Shown here: piece after piece, positions 1 through 21,895 of the stretch
Numbering within the stretch: the stretch's first letter is position 1
Layout of the letters: each line of letters begins with the position of its first letter
IMG/VR virus record: IMGVR_UViG_3300033232_000030
Span: 1 to 38,112 of that record
Length of the DNA stretch: 38,112 nt
From: a virus
Taxonomy: Duplodnaviria; Caudoviricetes
Strand: one strand, 5' to 3'
The notes under the pieces: model-generated
Told to the model about the DNA's origin: nothing
What the model saw: the letters and a program-made list of their open reading frames with translations, nothing else
Database searches by the model: none
Made by a program: the position numbers and the translations under genes

Positions 1-253
1 GATCTACTCTGTGCTTGCCATCCCGCTGCGCCACCATCCCCGGCGTGTCTTTCCAGTCTCTCGCGCTCGGTGTCACCCACCCAGTAAAGTCTGTCTCGAA
101 TGTGCGGCGCACCGACGCCCGCAGACGAAAAAGCAACCGCTGCGCAGGCGTAACCTGCGCCTTCCAAGTCATCGAATACAAGGTCGATCCAAGCCCCTCC
201 AGCCTCTTCATTAGATTCAGTGTTACTCGCTCCTGAAGTTCTTCGCTCGTCAT
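1..253 (-). CDS. Alternative-frame ORF inside the methyltransferase gene, probable small/beta polypeptide (runs off the left edge)
   Basis: ATG 253 after AAGGTG: MTSEELQERVTLNLMKRLEGLGSTLYSMTWKAQVTPAQRLLFRLRASVRRTFETDFTGWVTPSARDWKD. Resembles the W-x-TP-x-ARDWK overlapping ORFs of this phage MTase family; analogous to the M.EcoHK31I alpha/beta arrangement. Confidence 0.65.
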   Translation of the reverse strand, partial: MTSEELQERVTLNLMKRLEGLGSTLYSMTWKAQVTPAQRLLFRLRASVRRTFETDFTGWVTPSARDWKDTPGMVAQRDGKHRVD

Positions 254-1178
254 TTTTTACACCTTGTTTTTCAACCACTGCACGATGATTGACATCGCCA
301 CTTCCTCCCCCCAGTCCCCCAGCATCGCGTTCACTGCAAAAGCTACGATCCGAACATTCCCGTAGATGTAGCCTTTGCTCGGATCGATCCTGTCCAATGA
401 CGGCGTGTTGTATGCCCTCCCTGGAGCAACCCCCAGAGCAAGAGCAATCCCCGACACCTCGCAGATCGCTTTGGATATGCGCTCCTGTATTTGAGCCACA
501 TGCGCATCCAAGTCGAAAGCAATCCCCCTCTTTTGACTCCTTCTCCTGCACTCCGAAATCAAGTAAGCCGCCCGGTTCTTGGCCCTGTATTCCCTCGAAT
601 AAATCTCTGTTTTCTGACTTCTTTTCGCTCTTGCGGCTTTTCGCGCCTCTGTCGAATTTGACCGCCAGGTCTTTTCGTACTCCCTCTGGCACTCCTTGCA
701 TAACGGCCTCAATCCGAGCCTTCCTCTGCCGGAATATTTCCGATACTGATCCAGGGGTTTGACCTCCCCGCACACCGTACAAGCCTTCGTTTCCATAGCC
801 AATTACTCCTTTTGATGCAACCTGTTCACCAAATATTATATCCGGTGAACAGGTTGCAATCAATCTCATCCAAACCGGCCACAGGTGCCGCTCGTCGCCA
901 AACCCCTTTCCTTTGCCTGCCGCGCTGAAAGGCTGACACGGGCATGATCCTGTCCACACTGGTCGGTCGTCGCTCCATCCTGCTTGGCGCAGGGCGTAGC
1001 TCCAGACGCCAATGCCAGCGAAAAAATGGCATTGGGTGAAACCTCTGATGTCGCTGGGGCGAACATCCTCGATCGATCGTTCATCTACTTCTCCTGGGGC
1101 AATAAGCCCCGCATCAATTAAATTTCTGAGCCATTGCGCTGCAAATGGGTCGAATTCGTTGTAGTAGGCTGCGCGCAT
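1..1178 (-). CDS. Phage DNA (cytosine-5) methyltransferase, large/alpha polypeptide; runs off the left edge and carries a ~205-codon insertion
   Basis: Hand translation from ATG 1178: MRAAYYNEFDPFAAQWL...HFFAGIGVW...TGSCPCQPFS...DERHLWP...FGEQVASK-[insert]-AWIDLVFDDLEGAGY...GAPHIRDRLYWVG. No stop down to position 1. Absent from the ORF track because it has no stop in the window. Confidence 0.9.
   Translation of the reverse strand, partial: MRAAYYNEFDPFAAQWLRNLIDAGLIAPGEVDERSIEDVRPSDIRGFTQCHFFAGIGVWSYALRQAGWSDDRPVWTGSCPCQPFSAAGKGKGFGDERHLWPVWMRLIATCSPDIIFGEQVASKGVIGYGNEGLYGVRGGQTPGSVSEIFRQRKARIEAVMQGVPEGVRKDLAVKFDRGAKSRKSEKKSENRDLFEGIQGQEPGGLLDFGVQEKESKEGDCFRLGCACGSNTGAHIQSDLRGVGDCSCSGGCSREGIQHAVIGQDRSEQRLHLRECSDRSFCSERDAGGLGGGSGDVNHRAVVEKQGVKNDERRTSGASNTESNEEAGGAWIDLVFDDLEGAGYACAAVAFSSAGVGAPHIRDRLYWVGDTERERLERHAGDGGAAGWQAQSR
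257..796 (-). CDS. His-Me finger (HNH-like) endonuclease with N-terminal Zn ribbon, nested in the methyltransferase gene
   Basis: CxxC...CxxC N-terminus; PSLDRIDPSKGYxxGNVRxVxxxVN motif; RBS AAAGGAG upstream of ATG 796. Confidence 0.8.
   Translation of the reverse strand: METKACTVCGEVKPLDQYRKYSGRGRLGLRPLCKECQREYEKTWRSNSTEARKAARAKRSQKTEIYSREYRAKNRAAYLISECRRRSQKRGIAFDLDAHVAQIQERISKAICEVSGIALALGVAPGRAYNTPSLDRIDPSKGYIYGNVRIVAFAVNAMLGDWGEEVAMSIIVQWLKNKV
816..863 (-). promoter_or_regulatory. Sigma70-like promoter of the nested endonuclease, overlapped by a 15-bp inverted repeat
   Basis: Minus strand TTGATT(863-858)-17 nt-TATAAT(840-835); arms tgcaacctgttcacc 816-830 and ggtgaacaggttgca 844-858. 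Confidence 0.65.
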
Positions 1179-3148: not shown

Positions 3149-3637
3149 TTACATTGCCAGGCAACGGGCAGAGCCGCGCATGGGATTGGCGAATGGGATG
3201 TCGTCATCCATGGCTGCAAAGCCACCAGACTGGCCTTGGCGCACAGGCTGCGGCGCCTGGCGTTGTGGCGCGGCTTGACGTGCTGGTTGCTGGCCTTGCT
3301 GACCGTCAGGCTTCCCGCCAAGCATTTTCATCTCGCTGGCCTGTATTTCGGTGGCGTACTTTTCGACGCCATCTTTGTCGGTGTATTTGCGCGTTTTAAG
3401 TTTTCCGCTGATGTAGATCAACGAACCTTTGTGCAGGTACTGACCAGAGATTTCAGCCAGCTTGCCGAACATTGAAACGCGATGCCACTCCGTGGCTTGT
3501 TTGGCTTCGCCGGTGTTTTTGTCTTTCCACTTCTCAGTGGTGGCAACGGCCAGGTTGGCGACTGGTTCGCCCGTTGGCAGTTGTCTAACTTCGGGGTCAC
3601 GGCCCAGGTGGCCAATGATTTGGATTTGGTTAAGCAT
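3149..3637 (-). CDS. ssb: Single-stranded DNA-binding protein
   Basis: NQIQIIGHLGRDPE, TEWHRV, KGSLIYISGKLKTRKY, acidic DDDIPF near the C-terminus. Confidence 0.97.
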   Translation of the reverse strand: MLNQIQIIGHLGRDPEVRQLPTGEPVANLAVATTEKWKDKNTGEAKQATEWHRVSMFGKLAEISGQYLHKGSLIYISGKLKTRKYTDKDGVEKYATEIQASEMKMLGGKPDGQQGQQPARQAAPQRQAPQPVRQGQSGGFAAMDDDIPFANPMRGSARCLAM

Positions 3638-4259
3638 GATTTTCCTTTTGGTTTGTTACTGGTGTTTTGAATGCCGCATCTATCTCCCACCCAAAAGATA
3701 GACGGCCTTGGACAGTTCCTTTATTGATGCCGTACAGTCTGCAAGCCTCACTTAGCGTCAATGTTTTTTCATCAATCAAAAATAGTCTGTTGTTGCTCCT
3801 GTTGTTGCCTTGAGTCATCTGGCTTGCCCACCGACAGTTTGATGGCTCGTAGTTCCCGTCGTTGTCCTTTCGGTCAACCGTCATGCCAGGCGGTCGCGGC
3901 CCCATGTCCTTCAAGAAGTTTTCATAGACCTGCCACCTTTCGCAAACCGTTATCCCTCTGGCACCATACCTATGCCACTTTGTGTGGTTTGGGTTGTTGC
4001 ATCGCTGCAGCATTCCGTGCCACGCAAAGTATTCTTTCGTTCCACTCGCCCCGTGTGTTACTTGGCTCCGCAGAATCTCTTTGTTGGCGCATCCGCACGA
4101 TGTGGTCGAGCCATATCGGAGTGATTGGCCAAGGATGGACTTGGTTGCACCGCAATCACATACGCATACCCATCTTGCATTGCCATTGGCGTCGCTGCCG
4201 TTACGGCTCATCACTGTCAACCTACTAAACCTGAGCCCGACCATGTCTTTGACTGGCAT
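3630..4259 (-). CDS. Free-standing HNH homing endonuclease-like protein
   Basis: GLRFSRLTV...WVCVCDCG...SCGC, YGARGITVCERW, TVDRKDNDGNYEPSNCRWA..Q.NN. Confidence 0.85.
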   Translation of the reverse strand: MPVKDMVGLRFSRLTVMSRNGSDANGNARWVCVCDCGATKSILGQSLRYGSTTSCGCANKEILRSQVTHGASGTKEYFAWHGMLQRCNNPNHTKWHRYGARGITVCERWQVYENFLKDMGPRPPGMTVDRKDNDGNYEPSNCRWASQMTQGNNRSNNRLFLIDEKTLTLSEACRLYGINKGTVQGRLSFGWEIDAAFKTPVTNQKENHA

Positions 4260-7190: not shown

Positions 7191-7565
7191 CTAATTTGCA
7201 ATTGATTGTTGTTTTTCTGTTAAGCAGAATGGGTTTGCTGATGTATCAGGGACGGGGACTGACTTGGGCCATAGCTCTCGCCAAACGAGCTCGCGCACGG
7301 TTCGGATATGGGCGGACAACCAAACCTGCTGGCGCTGCTCTTTGGTGCCATTGCCTTGGTCAAGGGCCATGTGGCAGGCGTAACACAGGCTGGCGACCGC
7401 CGTATCGCTTGCCTTGATGCCGCGCCCTTTGCCGTGCTGACTCCAGTTGGAGTGCGCTGCAACCACGGTGCCGTCATCAGACCCACAGTTTTGGCAAGGT
7501 ATCAGGCGGCAGGCCTCTATCAACTTTTTGCTTCTGACGTAGGCGTGCTTTGGGCGTGAGATCAT
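7191..7565 (-). CDS. DUF1364/DUF968-like Zn-binding putative nuclease
   Basis: PCQNCG...VVAAHSN...GKGRGIKASD...LCYACH. Confidence 0.75.
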   Translation of the reverse strand: MISRPKHAYVRSKKLIEACRLIPCQNCGSDDGTVVAAHSNWSQHGKGRGIKASDTAVASLCYACHMALDQGNGTKEQRQQVWLSAHIRTVRELVWRELWPKSVPVPDTSANPFCLTEKQQSIAN

Positions 7566-10880: not shown

Positions 10881-12349
10881 CTTGATACGCCTTTGGCGTA
10901 AGCAATGGCTCTGCTTTTGACCCAGCCAACAACTTCTGGCGATGGGTGCTTGGCAGCTGGCTTGGAGGCCGGAGGATCGGTCTTGAATTTCTTTTTGTAC
11001 AGGTGCCAGCTGTAGCCCGGCTTTTTGTTGTACTCTGACTCGTAACCGATCAGCTGGGCGTAGTAGTCAAGCTGGTCAACTTTTGGTTTGTCGCTGACCT
11101 TGACCTCTTTCATCACCCCGGAAATTGAGACAACGTCGTGGCGCCTGGTGCGGACGTGCCCACAGTGCCCACAGATGTCTGCGTTGCCCCAAAGGTAGCC
11201 GCAAGACGGGCACTTGGATGCTTCTTTTTCTTTTGGCGTTGGCTCGGTGCGTGGTTTTTTGTCTTCGCCAGTGTCAAGCGAAGTCACGCCATCGTTGTAG
11301 AGCTTGTTGAACGATTCCTGAAACCGGAGGTAGTTGCCACTATGGTCTTGCACTACGGCAAACTGCTTGTCTGGATACGGGCGTGCGACGCGCCCCATTT
11401 GCTGGACATGCTCTGAGAAACTTTTCTTCAGCGGCCTGGCCAGAATGACGTGATGAACATCAGGCTGGTCAAAGCCGCGCGACAAGATGGCCACCGAGAT
11501 AATGACCTTGATGTCAGAGTCTGGCTTGGCAAAGTCGGCAAGCACTTCGGCACGGTACTCATCTTCATCATTGGATGAAATCTGCACAGCGTTGATGTCA
11601 GCCTCGATGAACTTGCGCGCCAGCTCTGCACCATGGGCAATGCCGCATGAGAAGCAAATGGTCTTGCGCTGCTCACCCCAGACTTCGTTTGAAATGCGGA
11701 TGTAGTCAGTAACCACGTCGCCGACGATCTTCTGGCCGCGCGCCTCAAGCTCATCCTTTTGCCATTCGCCAGCCACGACCTTGACGCCCGTGGTGTCGAT
11801 CTCATGGGCAACAAAGACACGGTAGGGAACCAGGTAGCCTTTATCGACCAACTCTTTCATGGTGATGACCGAGGTGACCGCAGAAAAATAGTTGCCCAAC
11901 TCAGGATTGAATGGGGTCGCGGTGGCACCTATGACACGCAGGTCTTGGCGGTTGTTGAACAGACGCTTTAGTGATGTCCGAAGGCACGCATGGACTTCAT
12001 CGACAAAGCAGATGTCAAACTGTGGCCAGCTGTCCATGCGCTCAAGGGTTTGTGCCGTGGCCACCTGGACCTGTGCATCTGGGCGAAAACGCCAATGCTT
12101 GGCCATCAGCACGCCATGATCGATACCGGCGGAGTCGAGGTGCTTGGAGAACTGCTCAACGAGCACGCGGCGCTCACAGATAAAGACAATTCTGGAACCC
12201 TTGGCCTGGGCTGCCTTGATCATTTGCAGCATCACGACCGATTTTCCGGCGCCTGTAGAAGCCGACAGAATCTGGCGGCGATGTCCATTGCGAAAGCCCT
12301 GGCGCAGGCTTTCAATGGCATCTTGCTGGTATTGCCTGTCTTCAATCAT
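10868..12349 (-). CDS. Superfamily 2 (DEAH-type) helicase with C-terminal Zn ribbon
   Basis: RQYQ, STGAGKS, DEVH, TATP, GFDQP, QQMGRVAR, CPSCG...CGHCG. Confidence 0.95.
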   Translation of the reverse strand: MIEDRQYQQDAIESLRQGFRNGHRRQILSASTGAGKSVVMLQMIKAAQAKGSRIVFICERRVLVEQFSKHLDSAGIDHGVLMAKHWRFRPDAQVQVATAQTLERMDSWPQFDICFVDEVHACLRTSLKRLFNNRQDLRVIGATATPFNPELGNYFSAVTSVITMKELVDKGYLVPYRVFVAHEIDTTGVKVVAGEWQKDELEARGQKIVGDVVTDYIRISNEVWGEQRKTICFSCGIAHGAELARKFIEADINAVQISSNDEDEYRAEVLADFAKPDSDIKVIISVAILSRGFDQPDVHHVILARPLKKSFSEHVQQMGRVARPYPDKQFAVVQDHSGNYLRFQESFNKLYNDGVTSLDTGEDKKPRTEPTPKEKEASKCPSCGYLWGNADICGHCGHVRTRRHDVVSISGVMKEVKVSDKPKVDQLDYYAQLIGYESEYNKKPGYSWHLYKKKFKTDPPASKPAAKHPSPEVVGWVKSRAIAYAKGVSRWRH

Positions 12350-12993
12350 GCCTGCATCCTCCTGTGATTTGCCTCAAACACGGCTTTTGCAAACCCTGCT
12401 GGCGTGGCGCTGCGGATGCTGGCCCGGTCTGGCCCAGGGGGGCATTTGTGAATGCGGTCATCAGGATCACAAAGCCCTGGAGCCTGAAAGGGTGGCGGCA
12501 TCACGAAACCGCCGCCTGTCCACAGGCATGTCTTCTTGGTGTAGTTGTCACCACTAAACCATCCAGTGAAGTGGTGCGGGCTGAAGTAATGGTCCGGCTT
12601 GCGCCAATAGCTTGAGATGCTGCTAACAGGGTTCTCGATGCCATAAGGCGCTTGCGACCATTCGCAGAACTCAACTGCCGTGGCAAACATTGACACCCCT
12701 TGGGCCAAGCGCCTCAATCCCTTTCCTTTGAACCATCGCGCACCGCTTACGGCAAGGTGGTCACATGGCGGGAAGGCAAACACGAATGCAATGCGGTCGC
12801 GGTCAATCGGGAGCAGCAATGGCACCATCAGGTCAGCGTGCTTCTTGTGAAGTCTTCCAATGATCGTCACGCCATCTGTGTCGTAGGCCACGGGGTGCTG
12901 TATGTCAACGGTCCAGCACTCATAACCCGCATCAAGCCACGGCTCGGCCATAATTCCAGTGATGTCAAACAAAAATACGGCGATGTCCTTCAT
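12346..12993 (-). CDS. Second C5 DNA methyltransferase-like protein (short phage Dcm-like family)
   Basis: FAFPPCDHLAVSGARW, IENPVS, YTKKTCLW; ATGA overlaps at both ends. Confidence 0.75.
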   Translation of the reverse strand: MKDIAVFLFDITGIMAEPWLDAGYECWTVDIQHPVAYDTDGVTIIGRLHKKHADLMVPLLLPIDRDRIAFVFAFPPCDHLAVSGARWFKGKGLRRLAQGVSMFATAVEFCEWSQAPYGIENPVSSISSYWRKPDHYFSPHHFTGWFSGDNYTKKTCLWTGGGFVMPPPFQAPGLCDPDDRIHKCPPGPDRASIRSATPAGFAKAVFEANHRRMQA

Positions 12994-13859
12994 GCTCGCA
13001 ACCTCTTGAGTTTGTTTTGCAGCGATAGGCATTGCCGCTTGGCTTGCGCTGCTTCGTTTTGATATTGATCGCGTGAGCGGGTAACGGCCTCCAGGTTGAT
13101 CTCCAGCGTGCGCACTTGTTGGCGAAGCTCTTTGGTGTGCGCAAGTGCCTGGGCTGCTTCGTCGTCAGTAGGGTGAAGAACAATCGCATCGAGCCGGTCT
13201 TGCAGTGCCTGGTTTTGCTGATGCAGTTCCTGGATGTGGTCTTGCGCCTCATCAAGCGCGGTGTATTTGGGCGTGTCTTGCGCTTTGGTGGCTGGCTCGG
13301 CTGCTGGTTGATTGGCTGGCTGCTCGGCGGCGCGGTTCTGCGCCTTGCCAATGCCACCGGTTTTCATTGTTGACGTGGTGCCGTGCTTGGTGGTGTAGGT
13401 GCGCTCTGTGGGCTTCTCACTCAAATCGGATTTGAGTGAGCGCCGAACTGAGCTGACAAAATTCTGTGACACCGCGCAGGTTTTGGCAATGGCGCCGTCG
13501 CTCCAGGCCGCCCACTCGGCATCGCCCAGCATGGCTAGTACCGACTTGCGCTTGTCGGCGTTGGTTGGGCGCTTGCCGTGTCTGCCATTGGCGCCAACAC
13601 TGTAGAGCTTGGCGTCGCGGACAGTGCCTTTACGCACATCAGAGACGATGGATGTTTTGCCAGCTTGGGTGTGGGCGTGGTAGCGGTGGAAGCCGTCGGC
13701 CAGCCAGCCATCTACCCCGTCGTAAAAGACCACGACCGCAGGGAATTCGTCGCCCGACTTGATGGCCTCGGCGTATTCAGTGACAGTGTTGTTGTCGATC
13801 TGGACGCGTGATTGCGTGTCCCCGTCGATACGGATGCTTGCGATGTCGATGGTCTTCAT
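12990..13859 (-). CDS. ParB/Srx-like N-terminal domain protein with HTH and coiled coil
   Basis: TQSR, FPAVVVF, LADGFHRYHA, AN.RHG, WSDGAIAKTCAVSQNFVSSVR. Confidence 0.85.
   Translation of the reverse strand: MKTIDIASIRIDGDTQSRVQIDNNTVTEYAEAIKSGDEFPAVVVFYDGVDGWLADGFHRYHAHTQAGKTSIVSDVRKGTVRDAKLYSVGANGRHGKRPTNADKRKSVLAMLGDAEWAAWSDGAIAKTCAVSQNFVSSVRRSLKSDLSEKPTERTYTTKHGTTSTMKTGGIGKAQNRAAEQPANQPAAEPATKAQDTPKYTALDEAQDHIQELHQQNQALQDRLDAIVLHPTDDEAAQALAHTKELRQQVRTLEINLEAVTRSRDQYQNEAAQAKRQCLSLQNKLKRLRA
13414..13440. repeat. Palindromic site, copy 1, inside the ParB-like gene
   Basis: ctcactcaaatc-g-gatttgagtgag; reverse complement of 13414-13440 equals 25828-25854 exactly. Confidence 0.9.
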
Positions 13860-17610: not shown

Positions 17611-18117
17611 TCAGATGAAGACCAGCACTTTGCCGTCTTTGTTAACAAATTTCACGTCGCCGCCATAGCGTGCATCTCTGGCGTATTGCTCAAAGTTGAT
17701 GTAGCCGCGTGCATACTCTGGAATATCAGCAAGCATGCCAGCGGACTCCCAGTATTCTTCAGCCCATTCGGCTTCGCTGTCGAATTTGCCGTAGTAAGCC
17801 TCTTGTGCTTTGTCGATGTCGCCTTCTGGATCGATGCAGCAGAGATAGACTTCCAGCAGCTCTTTGTCATCGTCGTCAAGGCTGACCCATGAGTCCCAGA
17901 CTTCGGGGTCAAGGTGCGATTCGCTGATGAAGCGCTCGGGGATGCCTTCGTGGTCTTGGTACATGAATTCGTGTTCACCTTGACCATGCAACTCTTGGCA
18001 GGCTTCCTCGAATTCTTTAATGTCATCGTATTCTTCGAGGTTGAGCCAGGCGCCATCAATGGCGCCAGCGTTGTATTTGCCGTAGGTGCCGACGTAGATT
18101 CGTGGGGTGGTGCTCAT
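17611..18117 (-). CDS. ardA: Antirestriction protein ArdA (DNA mimic)
   Basis: IYVGTYGKYNAG...GAWLNL, FMYQDHE, YINFEQYARD; highly acidic. Confidence 0.92.
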   Translation of the reverse strand: MSTTPRIYVGTYGKYNAGAIDGAWLNLEEYDDIKEFEEACQELHGQGEHEFMYQDHEGIPERFISESHLDPEVWDSWVSLDDDDKELLEVYLCCIDPEGDIDKAQEAYYGKFDSEAEWAEEYWESAGMLADIPEYARGYINFEQYARDARYGGDVKFVNKDGKVLVFI

Positions 18118-20846: not shown

Positions 20847-21674
20847 TCAAGCCTGGCAAGCTGGCGCTTGTTGAGGTGCGCTGGATGTTCGCCAATCAGT
20901 CATGTCCCAGTTGCCCTTGCCCCCATTGCAGTCGCCACAAAGAATTTGGAGGTTGTCGATATTCAGCGCCAGGTCCGGAAATATCTTGCGCGGCTTGATG
21001 TGGTCAACGTGAATGACAGCACCAGTCTTGGCTGAGGCGCCACAGCACTGACAGACAGGGCCGTATTTTTTCAGTGCCATCATGCGGGTGGCTTTCCATT
21101 CGAATGTGCTCAAAAAGTCGTCCGAAGCCGGGTTGACTTTAGAGTGATTGACAATAAATGATTTGACGGATTGCTCTGTTGGCTGACGCGCGACCAATCT
21201 GCTTAATGGTTCATGGTGCGACTGGGCCTTGCTTGGTTGAGCTTTCACACGAGGAATCCAGTTCAACTGACACCACTCGCGCAGCTTTTTCTTGTTTTCG
21301 CGCATGAATACCTTCACGCTGCCGGAATATGTTGAGCCAAGTACTTCGACAACACGAGGAGCAACAGCGCCAAACAAACCAATACCACCGAGACGACTGC
21401 CATTAATTCCAGAGCACCTAAGGATGTCGTAGGCGAGTGTTGTGAGCTCTTTTCCCTCGACCTTCTTCCGTAATTTTTTATTCGCATTCTTTGGATGGCT
21501 GATTGCAGGCGGTCTATTTGCCGTAGCCTTTTGCGCTACAGCTTTAATGGCAGAGGCCGTTTTGCGCTCGGATTTCAGCTTTTTCTCAATCAAAGAAAGG
21601 AATGCGTGCCTTTTCTGCTTTGATGCTGCTTTCCATTCTTCAGTCTCTTTTAACTCCTCTATCTTCATTTTCAT
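20847..21674 (-). CDS. HNH endonuclease with basic N-terminal extension
   Basis: CQCCG...IHVDHIKP...NLQILCGDCNGGK. Confidence 0.85.
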   Translation of the reverse strand: MKMKIEELKETEEWKAASKQKRHAFLSLIEKKLKSERKTASAIKAVAQKATANRPPAISHPKNANKKLRKKVEGKELTTLAYDILRCSGINGSRLGGIGLFGAVAPRVVEVLGSTYSGSVKVFMRENKKKLREWCQLNWIPRVKAQPSKAQSHHEPLSRLVARQPTEQSVKSFIVNHSKVNPASDDFLSTFEWKATRMMALKKYGPVCQCCGASAKTGAVIHVDHIKPRKIFPDLALNIDNLQILCGDCNGGKGNWDMTDWRTSSAPQQAPACQA

Positions 21675-21895
21675 CTTCAACTTAGTTCCTTGGTATTCAG
21701 GTATCACCCCGAAAGAAAACAGAAAACCAAACCACAAACCCCCCCTACCCCCCAAGCCGATCTCAGGGTGGCACCCGGTTAATTCCGGAAAGCCCAAAGC
21801 AAAGAAAAAGAAAGTGTCAATGGACGTGTGATCCGCTCACACTTTCTCTTTCGTGCTGACCTATCTCTGGGGTTGTAGCCCCACAAAATCCTTTC

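Follow-up and report, generated by a model that had tools for sequence, protein, structure and literature searches.

The closest described system is the ShiLan element of mycobacteriophage DNA methylases, in which an HNH endonuclease lies out of frame within a stop-free insert of 202 aa (Arsenault, Gosselin and Gogarten 2025; PMC11855218). That account, as far as it bears on the element, is entirely computational and proposes that the insert persists as an unspliced loop. A hidden out-of-frame HNH gene of the ShiLan type was described earlier (Gosselin 2023; PMC9957025), and the principle of an out-of-frame nuclease in a methylase is already in print (PMC11855218). Coding in two frames is also known from a methylase in its own right. 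The beta chain of M.EcoHK31I is encoded in another frame of the alpha gene and bears motif IX, and its N-terminal 42 residues are dispensable in vitro (PMC2836561), while the alpha chain has motifs I–VIII and X (PMC2836561, PMC3404938). Split C5-methylases complement best in the region after motif VIII (PMC3404938). A free-standing endonuclease gene can also interrupt a host gene, as in the case of Aeh1 mobE in nrdA, which is associated with a genes-in-pieces ribonucleotide reductase (PMC3045599). Control through promoters placed in hairpins and through operators that resemble homing sites is known for T4-type nucleases; examples are the autorepression of I-TevI and the hairpin just upstream of the unsequestered ribosome-binding site of seg43(25) (PMC2988022).

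Here we describe a phage locus that probably combines several of these features: a homing endonuclease residing in the beta frame of a two-frame C5 methylase, unspliced, with the alpha chain read straight through and the beta chain restarted after the nuclease stop codon.

Methylase host gene and nested nuclease

The window, that is, the whole 38,112-nucleotide stretch analyzed (IMG/VR record IMGVR_UViG_3300033232_000030), is a linear virus record about 47% complete, with a phage gene set that includes recombination genes, a CI-like repressor, terminase, portal and capsid. It also harbors three further HNH-type nuclease genes, the first of which sits between ssb and an exonuclease gene, as well as a second DNA methyltransferase and an anti-restriction protein, the last two of which suggest a phage with several anti-restriction genes (Table 1).

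The alpha chain of the methylase matches PF00145 (E 1.2e-11), phrog_363 (E 1.1e-60) and M.HhaI (E 3e-16). As an earlier reading made from the letters of this DNA and its open reading frames (hereafter the sequence-only reading) had stated, the alpha frame runs from an ATG at position 1178 on the minus strand to the window edge without a stop. The gene leaves the window at that edge, and in relatives motif X falls beyond this point; there, a GN-type motif X terminates alpha. The alpha gene is complete in the relative L003/L167. EQV and motif VIII are separated by 239 codons in the window and by 37 codons in 73 of the 75 parsed empty alleles, giving an insert of 202 codons with an uncertainty of about 4 codons in the exact junctions. 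The long insert between motifs VI and VII claimed in the sequence-only reading, which had proposed this comparison with insertion-free alleles, is consequently real, although its size is 202 and not about 205 codons. The insertion site aligns with the loop after ENV of M.HhaI. The alpha-frame product of the insert is G/E/R/S-rich and predicted to be disordered. In the model of the complete alpha chain from L167 the methylase core is confident and the insert mostly has pLDDT <50, a prediction that fits the disordered loop suggested earlier; a Foldseek search with the alpha model gave weak C5-methylase matches only.

The 179-aa nuclease ORF, the AAAGGAG site in front of it and the register of the two frames, in which position 1 of the alpha codon is position 3 of the nuclease codon (+1), were all recovered as first read. 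The nuclease has an N-terminal CxxC...CxxC and a DR-x6-Y...N...N core (D135, R136, Y143, N147 and N156), and its best profile matches are phrog_3322 (E 2.9e-28) and phrog_1035 (E 4.1e-27). A sequence profile search gave weak matches to Hpy99I and PacI (PacI at E 0.19). The structural model (mean pLDDT 90.7) has PacI as its best Foldseek match (E 5.5e-3, prob 0.99), and neither this model nor that of alpha returned a match at E 0.001. By its core motif and predicted fold, the product is a His-Me finger endonuclease of a PacI-like kind. The DR...GY...N...N core motif is intact in 33 of the 36 loci designated class A below, and 2 of the 3 misses are cut contigs.

Table 1. Positions of the methylase, the nested nuclease, associated signals and further genes in the window
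Feature	Position	Strand	Remarks
C5 cytosine methyltransferase alpha chain	1..1178	-	motifs I, IV PCQ, VI EQV, VII, VIII in window
Stretch alpha K123 to W330 holding the 606-nt (202-codon) in-frame insert	192..809	-	from comparison with empty alleles
Nested His-Me finger (beta-beta-alpha-metal) endonuclease, 179 aa	257..796	-	+1 relative to alpha, the beta frame
Shine-Dalgarno-like AAAGGAG	806..812	-	9 nt before nuclease ATG; read as alpha K123-G124
Putative sigma70-like promoter, TTGATT-17-TATAAT	835..863	-	in alpha codons (LIATC...); 10/12 matches
Inverted repeat, predicted hairpin	812..863		816-836 and 838-858 form the core arms; the repeat encloses the -10 box and extends as far as the Shine-Dalgarno site
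Orphaned N-terminal part of beta frame	866..1084	-	native start region; ends at TGA 868-866
Restarted beta chain	1..253	-	ATG one codon past nuclease stop; phrog_1008 E 2.2e-9
HNH-type nuclease gene	3630..4259	-	phrog_374
HNH-type nuclease gene	7191..7565	-	phrog_131
Second DNA methyltransferase	12346..13032	-	phrog_757
Anti-restriction protein	17611..18117	-	phrog_2059
HNH-type nuclease gene	20847..21797	-	phrog_144

Stop avoidance and selection on the two frames

The nuclease codons of the window contain 0 alpha-frame stops, whereas 100,000 within-gene synonymous shuffles average 6.85. Stop-free shuffles were rare both within the gene (8/100,000) and under the codon usage of the window (2/50,000). 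The sequence-only reading had remarked that the nuclease gene lacks any NNT codon that would stop alpha, and T-ending codons indeed occupy 0/44 stop-forming sites as opposed to 28/94 sites elsewhere (Fisher p = 6e-6).

Related loci were fetched with an alignment of 27 nuclease relatives, so that openness of the host frame had no influence on the sampling. A nuclease match was present in 99 of the 100 loci scanned, the remaining one (L006, without a nuclease profile match) being removed before counting, and 77 loci were left at 97% dereplication. Classes were assigned by flanking methylase HMM matches rather than by stops, and class A comprises the 36 loci with the nuclease between motifs VI and VII/VIII. 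All 36 are free of alpha-frame stops where 204.0 were expected, and at 70% dereplication the same holds for 27/27 loci (153.5 expected). The 35 control copies located after, before or without a methylase contain 261 stops versus 282 expected, made up of 122 versus 128.8 for copies at or after motif X (13 loci), 133 versus 148.0 for copies with no methylase in view (21 loci, 1 of them stop-free) and 6 versus 5.1 for an upstream copy (1 locus). Copies after motif VIII have 31 stops versus 48.4 expected (5 loci, 1 stop-free), and the third frame of the 36 class-A loci has 297 versus 272.3. In this stop-avoidance test, which the sequence-only reading had suggested, homologous insertions at the site thus keep the host frame open and the controls carry stops; frequent host-frame stops in such insertions, an outcome named as refuting that reading, were not seen. 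The purging of alpha-frame stops is limited to the insertion site between motifs VI and VII. A frame left open by chance was considered and rejected on the basis of the synonymous shuffles and the 36 stop-free class-A loci.

Substitutions are distributed unevenly between the two frames. Among the window, L167 and L189, differences amount to 0.17-0.21 at nuclease position 3 and 0.03-0.07 at positions 1-2, and identity is 77-82% in the alpha frame versus 91-94% for the nuclease. In more distant pairs (62-72% nuclease identity), alpha-frame identity is 0.34 versus 0.27 in controls, and fourfold sites are near saturation. No amino-acid conservation of the loop was found beyond the nuclease-frame constraint. 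Judging from these patterns, purifying selection acts on the nuclease frame; the changes at nuclease position 3 together with the lower alpha identity indicate that the nuclease is conserved as a protein and alpha only as an open frame.

An open frame would likewise be required if alpha were translated through and the loop then removed, whether host proteases clipped it out and the two halves stayed together or protein splicing of some unknown form took place. Such removal fits the stop avoidance equally well, and a long, predicted disordered loop is a natural protease target. However, the alpha-frame junctions have no conserved terminal residues across the family, there are at least two insertion points with inserts of 140-217 codons, and the near-control identity of the loop in the alpha frame makes a conserved splicing catalyst unlikely. 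We therefore regard post-translational removal as unlikely and favor a loop retained in a methylase that is read straight through.

It is also possible to suppose that the filled methylase is inactive or weak and that the open frame is kept for another reason, for example a new role of the long alpha chain. The 202-residue loop adjoins the catalytic ENV motif, directly after which the insert sits, and could lower methylase activity; moreover, phage orphan methylases can be dispensable (PMC11855218). The locus L170 (1840-2620) encodes a shortened methylase that has lost motifs IV–VIII, and the frame is nonetheless open across the nuclease to motif X, with 0 alpha-frame stops versus 5.7 expected. 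What speaks against an inactive host is that only insertions flanked on either side by methylase core motifs are purged of stops, that a diverse range of filled alleles retains motifs IV, VI and VIII as well as the beta chain, and that the loop residues are not conserved. Among the 23 class-A alpha ORFs that reach their stop and include the motif IV region, PCQ is present in 22, motif VI in 23 and motif VIII in 23. A non-functional host therefore appears quite unlikely, and a filled methylase that presumably works is the reading we retain. Besides L170, the frame is also open in L193, where the nuclease lies after motif VIII.

Splicing, introns and inteins

A search of 10 loci against Rfam down to E 1, as the sequence-only reading had proposed in order to look for splicing RNA, gave no intron match and one tRNA only. 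The Pfam intein domain had no match, and no conserved intein-like ends were found at the alpha-frame junctions across the family. The earlier statement that the insert has neither intein termini nor a group I core is borne out by these Pfam, Rfam and junction comparisons. A group I or II intron was rejected, there being no ribozyme core in the Rfam search of the 10 loci, and an intein was rejected as there is no Hint domain and there are no C/S/T...HN termini in the host frame. In L194 (518-589), a tRNA gene is located about 1 kb upstream of the filled methylase.

Both junctions are spanned by contigs of relatives in a single metatranscriptome library, with no skipping joint among the matches listed; these are contigs only and may be DNA. 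Contigs from DNA runs include filled and skipping forms of the locus. No sequencing run contained half of the words searched (best 0.23).

The insert could still be a self-splicing intron that went unrecognised, or an element that ribosomes bypass, its open frame being a relic or backup. There is a strong hairpin at the 5′ junction, and degenerate introns can escape Rfam. However, the space outside the nuclease ORF is about 10 nt before it and about 60 nt after it, the latter coding for beta, so that there is no room for a ribozyme core, and splicing would delete the beta start. Either process would free the frame, yet none of the 204 expected stops is found while fourfold sites approach saturation. 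Together with the Rfam result and, as far as contigs can show, the bridged junctions, this makes a spliced or bypassed insert very improbable compared with an unspliced one.

The beta frame: two-frame host, restart and fusion

By the layout of its frames, the host is a two-frame alpha/beta C5 methylase like M.EcoHK31I, and it is the beta frame that the nuclease occupies. The +1 (beta) frame is open across the site in 75/75 parsed empty alleles (of 79 fetched), extending 71-205 codons before the site and 132-283 codons after it, and phrog_1008 matches 42/42 beta sequences checked. Beta contains a conserved LNP...WLMGLP block, which may be motif IX; searches of Pfam methylase families and PDB sequences with beta gave no match to confirm this.

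The insertion point falls within the codons of the first conserved helix of beta, in which L6, L10 and L14 are nearly invariant. The last codons of the insert encode a replacement for this helix, and the first helix of the restarted beta chain is encoded by the insert's 3′ end. Class A has two solutions for beta: 22 nucleases are stand-alone and 14 are fused into one beta ORF. All 20 stand-alone alleles with the 3′ end on the contig have an ATG or GTG within one codon of the nuclease stop.

The fused alleles are L172, L174-L176, L178, L187, L220, L224, L225, L229, L230, L235, L236 and L257. Several of them are without the N-terminal zinc finger; both host frames are open and there is no promoter-like site. 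L187 is from a Bacillota MAG.

A complex of alpha with insert and restarted beta was modelled from the relative L167, the window gene being truncated. The model scored an ipSAE of 0.87 (best of 3 controls, 0.00), with at least 69% of contacts agreeing between runs and a partner pLDDT of at least 65; the ipSAE mark is reached by 116/157 solved and 2/215 mismatched pairs. The best alpha-beta contacts in this model include beta residues 6-14. The model supports an association of the two chains, although the score may reflect a resemblance to single-chain C5-methylases of solved structure.

Promoter-like site and inverted repeat

The putative sigma70-like promoter upstream of the nuclease is written in alpha codons, and the TGA and TAA of its two words are stops in the beta frame. 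Since the promoter words create these stops, they can exist only after the beta start has moved, and we infer that the promoter arose after that move. The relevant comparison comprises 18 stand-alone alleles whose contigs include the flank, 12 fused alleles and 79 empty alleles. A promoter score of at least 8 of 12 at the fixed register is seen in 13/18 stand-alone alleles (the other 5/18 lack a promoter match), 0/12 fused and 0/79 empty alleles. A beta-frame stop within the promoter's 15 codons has a similar distribution (16/18, 1/12 and 0/79), as do the alpha residues LI.TC (12/18, 0/12 and 0/79).

The inverted repeat folds more strongly than its shuffles (z = -6.7, with 0/200 as strong) and is 76% paired over the 18 alleles. 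Covariation in the hairpin is not above shuffles (167/500), a slid control being lower and the structure being derived from the window. Predicted accessibility of the Shine-Dalgarno site is 0.69 in a long transcript versus 0.76 in a short one, and that of the upstream standby region is 0.00 versus 0.48. A terminator scan found no intrinsic terminator at the hairpin.

Probable mobility, insertion sites and host tree

The window and L167 are 90.8% identical over the insert, 92.5% over the 93-nt 5′ flank and 90.0% over 120 nt downstream. Further upstream their identity is 74.8%, compared to 84.8% between L167 and the empty allele L013, and 52/79 empty alleles resemble L167 more closely than the window does. 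A single clade of the 24 filled hosts was rejected (p-AU 0.0035) in a tree built on 270 nt only, for which empty alleles had been chosen for their proximity to the window and from which the cut row L188 had been removed before rebuilding. The window and L167 as sister hosts were not rejected (p 0.185 in the careful tree, 0.807 in the quick tree). The quick host tree was itself rejected as unreliable, as the constrained tree scored higher. The likeness of insert and flanks over divergent hosts fits homing with co-conversion.

Leaving L007 aside, the nuclease is absent from all 79 nearest methylase loci, and viral contigs searched with the alpha-frame insert alignment yielded 1 filled locus among 80. 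GenBank phages have only distant nucleases (<60% identity, 85 records). Four database proteins have the insert in frame (82, 77, 50 and 35% identity), in agreement with the open host frame, although as called ORFs they are a biased sample. Given the rejected clade of filled hosts and the higher identity of insert than of host (91 versus 75%), the distribution of the insert is patchy and homing-like. In the nuclease tree, 13 fused copies form a group that also takes in a single free-standing row on a long branch, whereas stand-alone copies are spread over several lineages; this tree has few columns and unsettled bootstraps, leaves out 7 short rows, and gives no order of events.

A second insertion point lies about 17 codons later than that of the window; here the motif VII helix is duplicated and the frame stays open. 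In L173, L193, L210, L211 and L232 the nuclease is found about 40-45 codons after EQV, past motif VIII. The alpha frame of L210, L211 and L232 stops at the nuclease start, ATG-led pieces resume in two frames and motif VIII is duplicated, and these loci likely encode a three-piece methylase. L173 has 3 alpha-frame stops and L193 none. In L177, L212, L214, L216, L231, L234, L237, L239 and L241-L243 the nuclease lies right after alpha motif X and is often followed by a second, partial motif X. At motif X the host end is duplicated, and stop counts are neutral. The position in the fold would appear to set which of three splice-free solutions the family adopts: in the catalytic core the frame would be read through, past motif VIII the gene is split, and at motif X there is duplication.

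The nuclease family is found mostly in or beside this methylase (56/77 loci), and in 14 alleles it forms part of the beta chain by fusion. Both would fit a domesticated partner, for instance one that does the cutting in a compact restriction-modification unit or that helps the methylase to bind DNA. On the other hand, the nuclease occurs at several positions within or next to the gene, and host motifs are duplicated there, the insert and its close flanks are far more alike than their hosts, and nearly all of the nearest methylases do without it, as noted above. A domesticated nuclease is thus improbable in the extreme, and a mobile, homing nuclease accounts better for its distribution.

Proposed mechanism

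As a homing endonuclease, the nuclease would cut empty alleles near the motif VI codons and be copied in with flanking host DNA. The insertion site is in the catalytic domain, where the chain probably cannot be split, so that only read-through alleles would survive there; after motif VIII, the methylase gene may break into pieces. Insertion would have cut the first conserved helix of beta, and the element would supply a new helix in its place, along with a start codon coupled to the stop of the nuclease. If the old N-terminus of beta was dispensable, the upstream host codons would have been free to become a promoter, from which nuclease and beta could be transcribed together. The hairpin may reduce how much nuclease is translated from the long message; alternatively, the repeat may serve as an operator.

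The sequence-only reading, of a splicing-free, dual-coding homing element tolerated as a disordered loop, is supported by this comparison of alleles as regards the unspliced loop; it had overlooked the two-frame host, the rewiring of beta and the promoter-like site. These last features suggest, more tentatively and at somewhat less than even chance, that the element has captured half of the host enzyme, the rebuilt beta helix and the promoter making beta a coupled passenger of the nuclease message. If so, the phage could not silence the nuclease without losing the methylase, and a selfish gene would be seen rewriting a dual-coded host.

Reading through would give a homing nuclease a third way to live in a gene, besides introns and inteins. 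The family amounts to a natural experiment, with 0 of 204 expected stops at one site and neutral rates elsewhere, and one methylase offers empty, filled, fused and split alleles as compact substrates. It also holds a warning for annotation, as gene callers give either the long methylase or the nuclease and miss the three-protein layout.

Comparison with known systems

The locus shares with ShiLan an endonuclease ORF out of frame in a phage methylase, a 202-aa insert without a host-frame stop, the lack of intron or intein signs, a proposed unspliced loop and a patchy distribution. ShiLan gp65, in contrast, belongs to the amino-methylases (DPPY motif), and its nested nuclease is a canonical HNH in the +2 frame. 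The locus in the window has a two-frame C5-methylase with a PacI-like nuclease in +1 and, within its family, several insertion sites; it has a Shine-Dalgarno and a promoter-like site, whereas ShiLan has been proposed to lack a leader. Beta is restarted or fused here, and the stop test was run with controls. The alpha, beta and nuclease profiles had no match to ShiLan, pointing to an independent origin. Membership of the same family was rejected on these profiles and on the other methylase class and frame. In phage ShiLan itself (L263:4786-7668), the annotated gp65 ORF ends well before the short downstream 'DNA methylase' gp67, the conserved block of which lies in another frame; the ShiLan methylase may be in two pieces or frameshifted.

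M.EcoHK31I likewise has a second ORF in another frame of the alpha gene, and its tolerance of N-terminal loss in beta fits the loss of the beta N-terminus here. Unlike the present locus it has no nested nuclease, and the two are likened by their layout; the present beta chain may be longer and include some of the variable region. Aeh1 mobE is similar as a free-standing endonuclease in a coding gene without splicing, with insertion-derived sequence becoming part of the host protein. In that case the host is split into two chains, whereas here alpha would be read through and only beta restarted; the copies after motif VIII resemble the Aeh1 solution. Out-of-frame Endo VII-like nucleases have been reported inside splicing inteins, whereas no intein surrounds the nuclease here. 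The likeness to PacI is one of fold and of the DR...Y...N core, on weak matches in both sequence (E 0.19) and structure (5.5e-3). With T4-type control the locus shares a promoter in a hairpin upstream of the nuclease start and possibly an operator resembling the homing site; the putative promoter here differs in being sigma70-like and written in the codons of the host methylase.

In the literature covered, which included few subscription papers, we found no account of a nuclease nested in a two-frame C5-methylase, of a beta restart or of this promoter. The published ShiLan case has so far had no statistical or bench support. What the present locus adds to that published kind is a stop test with controls, a beta frame captured by the element and a putative promoter encoded in host codons.
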